Positions 1,557 to 2,475 of a stretch of DNA of 17,381 nt are shown piece after piece. The stretch lies in UHGV virus genome UHGV-0315696; one strand, 5' to 3'. The translations under genes and the position numbers were made by a program. Each line of letters begins with the position of its first letter. The first letter of the stretch is position 1. Source of the DNA: a virus. The notes below the pieces were generated by a model that worked only from the letters and a program-made list of their open reading frames with translations, did no database searches and was not told the DNA's origin.

Positions 1557-1802
1557 TCACCGGATTACCACATCCCACTCCGGCTCCTGCCATCTCAAAT
1601 CCGGTGAATCATTTCTCTCAGGAATAACCATTACGTCCTTTTCCCTTCGCTCCCTTTCTATCGCCATCACAGCCAATGCTGCAACCATGATGTATTTTTG
1701 TTCGTCGGTTCCTGTTTCATAACGACGCATGAGGGTAAACTCGGGGCGATCAGTAACCTCAATGATTTCGTTAATTTCTTTAATTTCGCGAGGAATATCC
1801 AT
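1557..1802 (-). CDS. Hypothetical small protein (81 aa)
   Basis: ATG at 1802..1800 (MDIPREIKEINEIIEVTDRPEF...) preceded on the - strand by a strong SD AAGGAG (complement of 1812..1817) at 9-nt spacing. Its start overlaps, divergently, the start of the 1801..2475 gene. No family recognised. Confidence 0.35.
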   Translation of the reverse strand: MDIPREIKEINEIIEVTDRPEFTLMRRYETGTDEQKYIMVAALAVMAIERERREKDVMVIPERNDSPDLRWQEPEWDVVIR

Positions 1803-2475
1803 GGGTTTAGTCTCCTTTGATATCACATGCCCGCACTGTTTAAAAGAGCGAGCTGTTATTGAGGCATTTGCCGAAAAACAAATTGAAAAAACACCTTTTT
1901 TTAACGTCGCTTTTGTATGCAGAAGTTGTCATCGAGGAGGTGTTGCTATTGTTGAAATCCCATCAGACCACTATCACGGTCCCATGGCGGAAAGCCAGAA
2001 AAAAGACCTCGATATTCTGATTTCAGGAAATAGCCAGTACCGTTTCCGCAAGATCTATCCTGTGGTCAAAAAAATTACCGCACCAGAATATACGCCCCCG
2101 GTTGCAGACCGTACTTTTGTTGAGGCAAAAGAGGATTTACAGAGGAGGCGGTACGACACAGTGGTTATTCTTTGTCGCAGAGTCCTCGATATCTCCACGA
2201 AAAAACTGCTCGGCGATGAAGCAGGAAAAGAATCGCTGTCGCAACGTATTCAGATGATTTACAAAAAAGGCCTGATCACTGAACAGATGAAGGAATGGGC
2301 TCATATTGTACGAATTGATGCCAATAAAGCAGTTCATACAGATGAAGTTTTCACACCAATTGAGGCAAGCCAGATCCTGAGTTTTACCGAAATGTTTTTA
2401 GTCTACGCCTTCACTCTGCCTGCAATGGTGGAAGCCAGACGTGAACAAAAAAGATCAGATTCAGCCTCTATATGA
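1801..2475 (+). CDS. Zinc-ribbon protein with a C-terminal DUF4145-like (HEPN-like) domain; candidate abortive-infection/defense protein
   Basis: ATG at 1801 with GAGG 7 nt upstream. N-terminal CPHC...CRSC pair; the C-terminal region (VVILCRRVLDISTKKLL...AHIVRIDANKAVH...) resembles the DUF4145 signature as I recall it. Opposite orientation to the flanking phage operon. Domain call is from memory, not a search. Confidence 0.55.
   Translation: MGLVSFDITCPHCLKERAVIEAFAEKQIEKTPFFNVAFVCRSCHRGGVAIVEIPSDHYHGPMAESQKKDLDILISGNSQYRFRKIYPVVKKITAPEYTPPVADRTFVEAKEDLQRRRYDTVVILCRRVLDISTKKLLGDEAGKESLSQRIQMIYKKGLITEQMKEWAHIVRIDANKAVHTDEVFTPIEASQILSFTEMFLVYAFTLPAMVEARREQKRSDSASI

Follow-up and report, generated by a model that had tools for sequence, protein, structure and literature searches.

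The window analysed here is the whole 17,381-nucleotide (nt) stretch of DNA taken from the virus genome UHGV-0315696, which was recognized as a lambda-like prophage from the gene content on both strands. Close to its left end lie two divergently oriented genes that share part of their start codons. On the + strand, positions 1801–2475 encode a protein of 224 amino acids (aa) with a zinc ribbon and a DUF4145/HEPN domain, similar in layout to the defence RNase RAZR (RefSeq WP_032144013.1, “DUF4145 domain-containing protein”). On the − strand, positions 1557–1802 encode a small open reading frame (ORF) of 81 aa that belongs to phrog_8371 (RefSeq WP_001624507.1, “hypothetical protein”). Precisely these two coding sequences are annotated by RefSeq/PGAP in identical E. 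coli chromosomes. The + strand ATG occupies positions 1801–1803 and the − strand ATG lies opposite CAT at 1800–1802, so that positions 1801–1802 belong to both (...GCGAGGAATATCCATGGGTTTAGTCTCCTTTGA...). Direct reading confirmed this overlap, which had been pointed out in the sequence-only reading of this DNA, as well as the presence of a Shine-Dalgarno sequence for each gene inside its partner: GAGG at 1790–1793 (+), 7 nt from the DUF4145 ATG and within codons 4–5 of the small ORF, and AAGGAG (the complement of CTCCTT) at 1812–1817 (−), 9 nt from the small-ORF ATG and within codons 4–6 of the DUF4145 gene. The CCATGG palindrome emphasized in that reading is indeed present at 1799–1804, but the six-base form is restricted to the E. 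coli clade, where it arises because the ATG/ATG overlap is combined with a second codon starting with G in each gene. The conserved part is CATG (1800–1803).

This CATG core is invariant. A survey with the DUF4145 protein yielded 61 distinct loci of this DUF4145 subfamily; a scan of species-representative genomes gave seven loci only. An intact or nearly intact small ORF was present in 38 of the 61, and the CATG overlap was found in all 38. Eighteen other loci constitute a sister clade of 212-aa proteins starting with MAML..., in which the small ORF is missing and the DNA upstream is ordinary non-coding sequence, and in five loci an intact DUF4145 gene lies beside a decayed small ORF. Three further, distant pairs from hosts with 56–61% G+C have the identical overlap, which is thus conserved in 41 of 41 distinct intact pairs (38 + 3), down to ≈25–35% identity, with a spacer in none. 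When the small ORF was used as the query, a DUF4145 gene was found in 33 of 41 viral-contig loci, always divergent, and the ATG of the small ORF always lay one base within that of its neighbour; chromosomal pairs from Morganella, Enterobacter and Arsenophonus displayed the same geometry. The hosts of the pair include Escherichia, Yersinia, Serratia, Enterobacter, Morganella, Arsenophonus and Rosenbergiella, as well as the G+C-rich hosts. The neighbouring genes, including replication modules and nin genes, vary by locus, and the pair therefore moves as one block. In nearly all loci, L139 among them, the DUF4145 gene is the lone gene on its strand within a co-directional array, while the small ORF points with that array. 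The strict conservation of synteny and geometry across divergent prophages supports the earlier suggestion that the small ORF may encode a small protein that regulates the DUF4145 protein or acts as its partner, and we are confident that the two genes form a real, conserved module.

Comparison between loci also indicates that the shared CATG serves as the translation start of both genes. For the DUF4145 gene, 16 loci offer no alternative in-frame start downstream of the nearest preceding stop codon, and for the small ORF the same is true of seven loci. Two alternative starts in the window, ATG at 1729 (giving a 248-aa RNase protein) and GTG at 1826 (giving an 89-aa small ORF), were rejected, since neither is conserved and many relatives have stop codons there. 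Constraint at synonymous sites, which the sequence-only reading had suggested looking for, was found at the codons that form the two Shine-Dalgarno sequences. Leu4 of the DUF4145 protein is encoded by CTC in 21 of 25 loci, against a family background of 11% (Fisher p ~1e-15), Ile3 by ATC in 11 of 17 loci, against 23% (p ~3e-4), and the Ser at codon 4/5 of the small ORF by TCC in 14 of 14 loci, against 13% (p ~9e-13); these p values ignore shared ancestry, while the comparison columns have the same ancestry. The Ile3 and Leu4 codons together give GAGGAT on the small-ORF strand, and TCC gives GGA on the DUF4145 strand. Where the same amino acids occur elsewhere, their codons vary freely, unlike those that lie under the Shine-Dalgarno sequence of the partner. 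In nearly all loci, synonymous recoding weakened the predicted pairing with the anti-Shine-Dalgarno sequence, with means of −5.7 (actual) vs −4.2 (recoded) and −4.9 vs −2.2 kcal/mol. The overlap is of the “AT” type, in which two opposite ATGs share AT, and both starts appear to be used, judging from these comparisons. Whatever its function, it appears to be one of the best-supported conserved divergent start-codon overlaps in which selection on the synonymous codons of the partner visibly preserves both ribosome-binding sites.

The small ORF matched the phrog_8371 profile over residues 1–81 of 81 (E = 6.8e-56); this family has no assigned function. Sequence searches found no match for the small protein in Pfam, PADLOC or the PDB. 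The family is tiny: a set of 1.84 billion proteins contains 32 clusters of it (at 50% identity). Some relatives are only 25–50% identical. The conserved core includes approximately residues 1–53, whereas the tail (≈58–81) is specific to the E. coli clade. AlphaFold2 predicted a three-helix bundle (residues 3–16, 20–30 and 33–57), with a predicted local distance difference test score (pLDDT) >90 for residues 1–55, and a disordered tail. Between relatives, the ratio of non-synonymous to synonymous substitution rates (dN/dS) in the core of ≈53 codons was 0.03–0.3, which amounts to strong purifying selection; between the small ORFs of L039 and L042, for example, 17.5 synonymous changes stand against 4.5 non-synonymous ones. 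Invariant residues are encoded by up to six synonymous codons (CGN and AGR for Arg, CTN and TTR for Leu, all four for Ala), a pattern that points to selection on the protein and not on a DNA element. The reading frame is thus kept in relatives under purifying selection on its core, which answers the question of conservation raised by the sequence-only reading. That reading had also considered that one of the two ORFs might be spurious. Divergent overlaps are often annotation artefacts and the 81-aa ORF has no Pfam family, but the purifying selection, the saturated synonymous variation at invariant residues, the confidently predicted fold and the conservation of a start codon and Shine-Dalgarno sequence for both genes leave a spurious annotation with a negligible chance of being correct. 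With both genes conserved and under selection, we reject it.

The tail of the small ORF has a different character. Two stable hairpins lie between the higA-like gene and the 3′ end of the small ORF (1515–1622; z = −7.4 on the + strand and −3.5 on the − strand). The first is G+C-rich (1515–1535) and is followed by TTTA. The second (≈1540–1622) is imperfect, with 30-nt arms at 1537–1566 and 1598–1627, and overlaps the tail and the stop codon of the small ORF. The tail is frame-shifted in L004, and the DNA element is kept in both L002 and L004. The E. coli-specific tail consequently looks like read-through into the structured element.

The 224-aa protein matched phrog_1305 and the Pfam family DUF4145 (PF13643). 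Its predicted zinc ligands are C10 and C13 (1828–1830 and 1837–1839) in the motif CPHC (residues 10–13), and C40 and C43 (1918–1920 and 1927–1929) in the motif CRSC (40–43). The predicted catalytic residues, R171 (2311–2313) and H179 (2335–2337), form an R-x7-H motif in WAHIVRIDANKAVH. All six residues were invariant in alignments of 15 and of 42 sequences. AlphaFold2 placed beta strands over residues 4–52 and predicted a helical C-terminal domain, and in a profile search the N-terminal domain weakly matched the zinc ribbon of Rpb9. When the model was used in a fold search, HEPN domains and HEPN-MNT structures came out on top, and LsoA-Dmd (PDB 5hy3) was among the matches. The protein has the layout of RAZR, that is, an N-terminal Cys4 zinc ribbon followed by a C-terminal DUF4145/divergent HEPN domain with Arg and His. 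RAZR, formerly PD-T7-4, is a ring-activated zinc-finger RNase with a zinc ribbon and a DUF4145/HEPN domain, and with R146 and H154 as catalytic residues (Zhang et al., Nature 2026, PMC13017515). It cleaves single-stranded RNA non-specifically and acts by abortive infection, is not toxic alone, is activated by polymerizing around phage portal or recombinase rings, and owes its specificity to the zinc-finger domain (PMC13017515). We refer to the 224-aa protein as RAZR-like, a designation based on its predicted architecture, rather than as a demonstrated RAZR.

The two halves of the putative RNase have diverged to very different extents. Among loci L033–L047, the half that includes the zinc ribbon and the linker (residues 1–100; 1801–2100 in the window) is mosaic and hypervariable, with 26–40% identity, while the HEPN half is 80–92% and the small ORF 92–100% identical. 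An example is the comparison of L040 with L044, in which the zinc-ribbon half is 33%, the HEPN half 91% and the small ORF 100% identical. The identity of the small ORF thus tracks the HEPN half and not the zinc-ribbon half. The pattern in the zinc-ribbon half suggests cassette exchange or diversifying selection on a specificity domain. In E. coli S1-CAM-02-A (H62), matches were limited to bases 1–619 of the query and occurred at three places in the record, with a truncated DUF4145 gene, possibly as a result of an insertion or rearrangement inside it.

The two genes are situated in the early region of the prophage. The order on the − strand is cro-like, cII, O-like, DnaC-like, DUF1627, DUF977, the region of the gene pair and an ORF6N antirepressor gene, while the nin genes of the same prophage lie beyond the left end of the window. 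The + strand carries a cI-like repressor gene, recombination genes (RecE family, Gam, Bet and Exo) and an integrase gene. The small ORF points in the same direction as the early-right (pR) operon, which starts ≈4.7 kb upstream, and the DUF4145 gene is oriented against it. A G+C hairpin, CCCCGTC-attcac-GACGGGG, was read from the sequence at 2499–2518, in the gap where the 3′ ends of the DUF4145 gene and the DUF977 gene face each other. Inside the DUF4145 gene, a terminator-like hairpin followed by a T-rich run (six T in a row) was found on the − strand at 2206–2224 as a consensus match only, and the residues encoded under it are not conserved in relatives. If this hairpin is real, expression of the small ORF would depend on antitermination of read-through from the early operon.

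Other genes around the pair were noted. Next after the small ORF, a pair encoding a Gp49/HigB-like toxin and a helix-turn-helix (HTH) antitoxin (863–1502, +) is also oriented against the early operon. The same slot in related phages holds another reverse-oriented pair, encoding TumE and an HVO_A0114-like protein (L002, 3297–3945), which suggests that the slot beside the small ORF is a hot spot for reverse-oriented cargo. Farther to the left, Rfam matches to isrK (719–796, 75 bits) and to the C4 antisense RNA (609–693, 74 bits) fall within 609–796 (−), upstream of the ORF6N antirepressor gene (1–557, −), together with a promoter-like site (832–803) and a terminator-like hairpin (740–724). Taken together, these features resemble an antirepressor control unit of the P1/P7 immI or the isrK-anrP kind, here within a lambdoid prophage. 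The DUF1627 gene (2955–3725, −) is a frameshifted pseudogene in RefSeq and an uninterrupted 256-aa ORF starting with ATG in the window. The left operon (≈10500–17058, +) encodes Kil, the RecE-family exonuclease, Gam, Bet, a lambda-Exo-family protein and the integrase, which is located beside ynfG/ynfH.

Accessory genes that are expressed in the lysogen are usually inserted in reverse, against the early operon. The reverse orientation of the DUF4145 gene suggests that it, too, would be expressed in the lysogen from its own promoter, and we consider it rather likely that a RAZR-like defence RNase is produced there. The small ORF would be made with the early operon upon entry into the lytic cycle or infection, most simply by read-through from the prophage early promoter. 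In most loci, the RNase promoter must lie either inside or beyond the small ORF. Since the early-operon transcript would be antisense to the whole RNase gene, such an arrangement would make expression of the two genes mutually exclusive. In the lysogen, the RNase gene alone would be transcribed. Upon induction, strong early transcription would collide with transcription of the RNase gene, and the early transcript would pair with the RNase message, including its ribosome-binding site, so that new RNase synthesis would be suppressed while the small protein was being supplied. The small protein would then be the phage's own antidote to, or negative regulator of, the RNase. The window prophage encodes Bet, a ring-forming protein that could conceivably act as a self-trigger of a RAZR-like RNase. 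The effect of the proposed arrangement would be that the phage's own portal or recombinase (Bet) rings fail to trigger self-abortion. We propose this complete scheme, including the antidote role of the small protein, tentatively, as a possibility that stops a little short of being probable.

Several observations weigh against the scheme, in whole or in part. The first group concerns promoters. The sequence-only reading had concluded that each promoter would have to be inside the other gene; this holds for the DUF4145 gene but not for the 81-aa ORF, which sits in the early operon. A consensus scan found no + strand promoter site within the small ORF (1557–1801), and a position weight matrix (PWM) scan covering 31 loci brought up no sigma-70 promoter for the DUF4145 gene that was both strong and conserved in position. 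The PWM scan did reveal a recurrent TTGATC-16-TAnCG(T/C) element with the −10 ending 75 nt before the ATG. The TTGATC-16-TAnCGT form reaches 9–12 bits in some loci, compared to a background 95th percentile of 9.9, and is weak in the window, where the candidate elements on the + strand (1698–1741) are TTGTTC (1698–1703), a 16-nt spacer and TAACGA (1720–1725), or alternatively the −10-like hexamer TAAACT (1736–1741). An Asp-Gln codon pair in the small ORF is frozen, as GAT in 16 of 16 and CAA in 28 of 29 cases, and reads TTGATC on the other strand. The coincidence of these frozen codons with the −35-like part of the candidate promoter is suggestive only. A recurrent −10-like hexamer just before the ATG was discarded, as it would start transcription inside the gene, and leaderless expression of the DUF4145 gene was likewise rejected, because no −10 at the right distance could be seen by eye in the window. 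In the window, read-through into the RNase gene from the upstream toxin-antitoxin pair is possible, though the two hairpins intervene. As for face-to-face promoters, expression of both genes would, given their layout, inevitably produce overlapping transcripts, and TTGATC-16-TAnCGT was seen as no more than a candidate.

The similarity to RAZR is also less than complete. PD-T7-4 was the best PADLOC model for the family, with a marginal match to the window protein (E = 0.002, 15.5 bits); among 42 members of the DUF4145 family, 14 matched this model at E ≤ 0.01, the best of them at 3.9e-6. Searches of the PDB with the sequences of both proteins and with a DUF4145 profile gave nothing useful, and neither these nor the fold searches brought up the RAZR structures 9Y9C and 9Y6U. 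For the small protein, Foldseek returned only helical hits, none of them significant, and hence no fold neighbour with a known function.

The invariant 2-nt overlap is, in terms of sequence conservation, not proof that the overlap itself has a function. Almost any insertion or deletion in CATG destroys both start codons, and selection on the two starts alone could therefore keep CATG frozen. This raises the possibility that the genes are merely frozen neighbours: an unrelated small ORF of the early operon, at the start of which a DUF4145 gene was inserted flush, held together by linkage only and with an overlap devoid of regulatory meaning. The ATG/ATG “AT” arrangement is the commonest type among the rare divergent overlaps, and once formed, it is mutationally hard to separate. 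Prophages of the phiSTEC1589-Stx1c type (L002 and L021–L028; E. coli H63–H69) provide a further argument in this direction, since they contain an orphan small ORF without the DUF4145 gene, an arrangement seen in ≈11 of 48 complete E. coli genomes with the region. Here, the homology to the window ends two bases before the start codon of the small ORF, placing a module boundary exactly at the start, and the DUF4145 position is taken by a co-oriented 166-aa phrog_25397 gene and ≈300 bp, while the small ORF has acquired a new GTG start with its own GAGG. (A 96-aa reverse ORF considered as a divergent partner in phiSTEC1589 has no family match and overlaps the 166-aa gene, which matches phrog_25397 end to end; it is probably spurious.) The sister DUF4145 clade and the relocated copies described below, which do without the small ORF, likewise fit with unrelated neighbours. 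However, despite the high mosaicism of lambdoid phages, the pair has stayed intact on different replication and nin backbones in many hosts. Apart from this single, recent E. coli lineage, the small ORF adjoined this DUF4145 clade in all loci found. Within the lineage, the L028 copy has a nonsense codon at the conserved Glu29, and the orphans differ by four synonymous and four non-synonymous codons, with one nonsense allele, a divergence too low to judge selection. On balance, we regard frozen neighbours as a rather unlikely explanation.

The antidote scheme must also accommodate intact RNase genes whose small ORF has decayed or that have been relocated away from it (L077, L096–L099 and L117), and at least there, the partner is dispensable. 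The relocated copies of the L096 type retain ≈45 nt of the 5′ end of the small ORF, bearing the DUF4145 Shine-Dalgarno sequence, while the small-ORF ATG itself is mutated (CAT to CAA). (In L096, L097, L099 and L117, the relocated gene, at ≈2177–2830, is next to a 361-aa reverse-strand ORF at the end of the contig, or prophage, which from its position is probably an integrase.) In Burkholderia phage phi644-2, which encodes a DUF4145 homologue with ≈33% identity, the small ORF was not found. The RNase gene thus survives without its partner, but the partner rarely without the RNase gene, which is the asymmetry to be expected if the partner is accessory, for example an antidote or a regulator. The same asymmetry, as read from gene content, argues against an obligatory antitoxin. 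A classical toxin-antitoxin system, in which the small protein would be needed constantly to restrain a constitutively toxic HEPN RNase, might be envisaged, because HEPN RNases are frequent toxins in such systems, HEPN-MNT structures were the top fold matches and the neighbouring slot in these prophages holds true toxin-antitoxin pairs. However, the genes are divergent, which makes the co-transcription typical of a type II operon impossible, the sister clade and the relocated or decayed loci retain the RNase gene without an intact small ORF, and RAZR is not toxic in the absence of a phage trigger (PMC13017515). We find a classical toxin-antitoxin system highly improbable.

Instead of an antidote, the small protein could be a transcriptional or post-transcriptional regulator, or a second subunit required for sensing or activity in a two-component defence system. 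Divergent regulator–target pairs are a common layout in bacteria, and both this general precedent and the conserved pairing would fit such a role, as would the covariation of the small-ORF core with the HEPN half of the RNase. That covariation, which also counts towards an accessory role of the small protein in the antidote scheme, could on the other hand reflect linkage combined with cassette exchange of the zinc-ribbon half. No HTH or other nucleic-acid-binding signature was detected by Pfam, and there was no fold match. Moreover, the small ORF runs in the direction of the lytic operon, and would normally not be expressed together with a defence gene that is expressed in the lysogen. The RNase gene also stays intact where the small ORF has decayed, and RAZR works as a single gene (PMC13017515). 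A regulator or cofactor therefore appears unlikely.

We accordingly return to the antidote as the preferred, if tentative, role of the small protein. By extension, phrog_8371 would be a family of phage inhibitors of RAZR-type HEPN RNases, the locus would be a defence/antidote switch coupled to the lysis–lysogeny decision, and the orphans in Stx phages would be stand-alone anti-defence genes directed at lysogens with the cassette. We offer this generalization as speculation, and doubt that all of it will hold. If the partner is an antidote, it would represent the first inhibitor family for the RAZR-type class of defence systems, and the locus would provide a natural layout in which the choice between defence and antidote is tied to the direction of transcription. 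A prophage carrying a RAZR-type RNase must avoid abortion by its own rings, and this locus is a candidate solution to that problem. The components are known individually: a HEPN/RAZR-like prophage defence gene, a start–start overlap and accessory genes embedded antisense to an operon. Their conserved pairing and wiring appear to be new; the papers found to mention DUF4145 or RAZR, considered mainly at the level of titles and abstracts, describe neither a partner gene nor such a layout.

The closest known system to the larger protein is RAZR itself. The two share the combination of a Cys4 zinc ribbon with DUF4145, the spacing of the predicted catalytic residues (R171/H179 here, R146/H154 in RAZR) and a size of ≈210–225 aa, and the hypervariability of the zinc-ribbon half in the present family echoes the specificity conferred by the zinc finger in RAZR (PMC13017515). 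However, RAZR was described as a single-gene system, whereas the clade described here is carried by prophages, lies in reverse orientation inside the early operon and has a small ORF as its partner, and the sequence similarity is marginal. There is also a precedent for a small phage protein that blocks HEPN RNases, namely, T4 Dmd, which acts on RnlA and LsoA (PDB 5hy3). Dmd, however, is made by an attacking lytic phage and is not encoded next to the RNase, and it has no similarity to the small ORF.

As an overlap, the arrangement falls into a rare category. Divergent pairs make up 0.9% of overlapping gene pairs, and 73% of these are of the “AT” type (bioRxiv 10.64898/2026.09.10.750558; Biol Direct 2007, PMC2174442). 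Such overlaps are under-represented because regulatory signals need to be embedded in coding sequence (bioRxiv 10.64898/2026.09.10.750558; PMC2174442). The present pair resembles the surveyed AT-type overlaps in having opposite-strand ATGs that share AT within CATG. While those were not tied to any function, the overlap here has been kept across a family of gene pairs, with selection on both ribosome-binding sites.

With respect to wiring, the best parallels come from temperate phages. The pR/pL promoters of coliphage 186 and the Pe/Pc promoters of P2 are arranged face to face and produce transcripts with overlapping 5′ ends and mutually exclusive expression. As in those switches, the genes described here are divergent, and, judging from the gene layout, their transcripts would overlap, with one direction lysogenic and the other lytic. 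The 186 and P2 promoters differ in that they have been mapped, with tens of bp between them in non-coding DNA, and that the genes they serve are the immunity switch itself, whereas the present genes are accessory and overlap at their start codons. Several prophages combine exclusion with self-immunity, including the pairs rexAB/ren of lambda, sieB/esc of P22 and BstA/aba. If the small protein acts as proposed, the pair would similarly consist of an exclusion system and a self-sparing determinant of the same phage, although there is no sequence relationship to those pairs and none of them have start codons in common. Finally, lambda ren follows directly behind the replication genes of the pR operon, and the small ORF occupies the corresponding neighbourhood.

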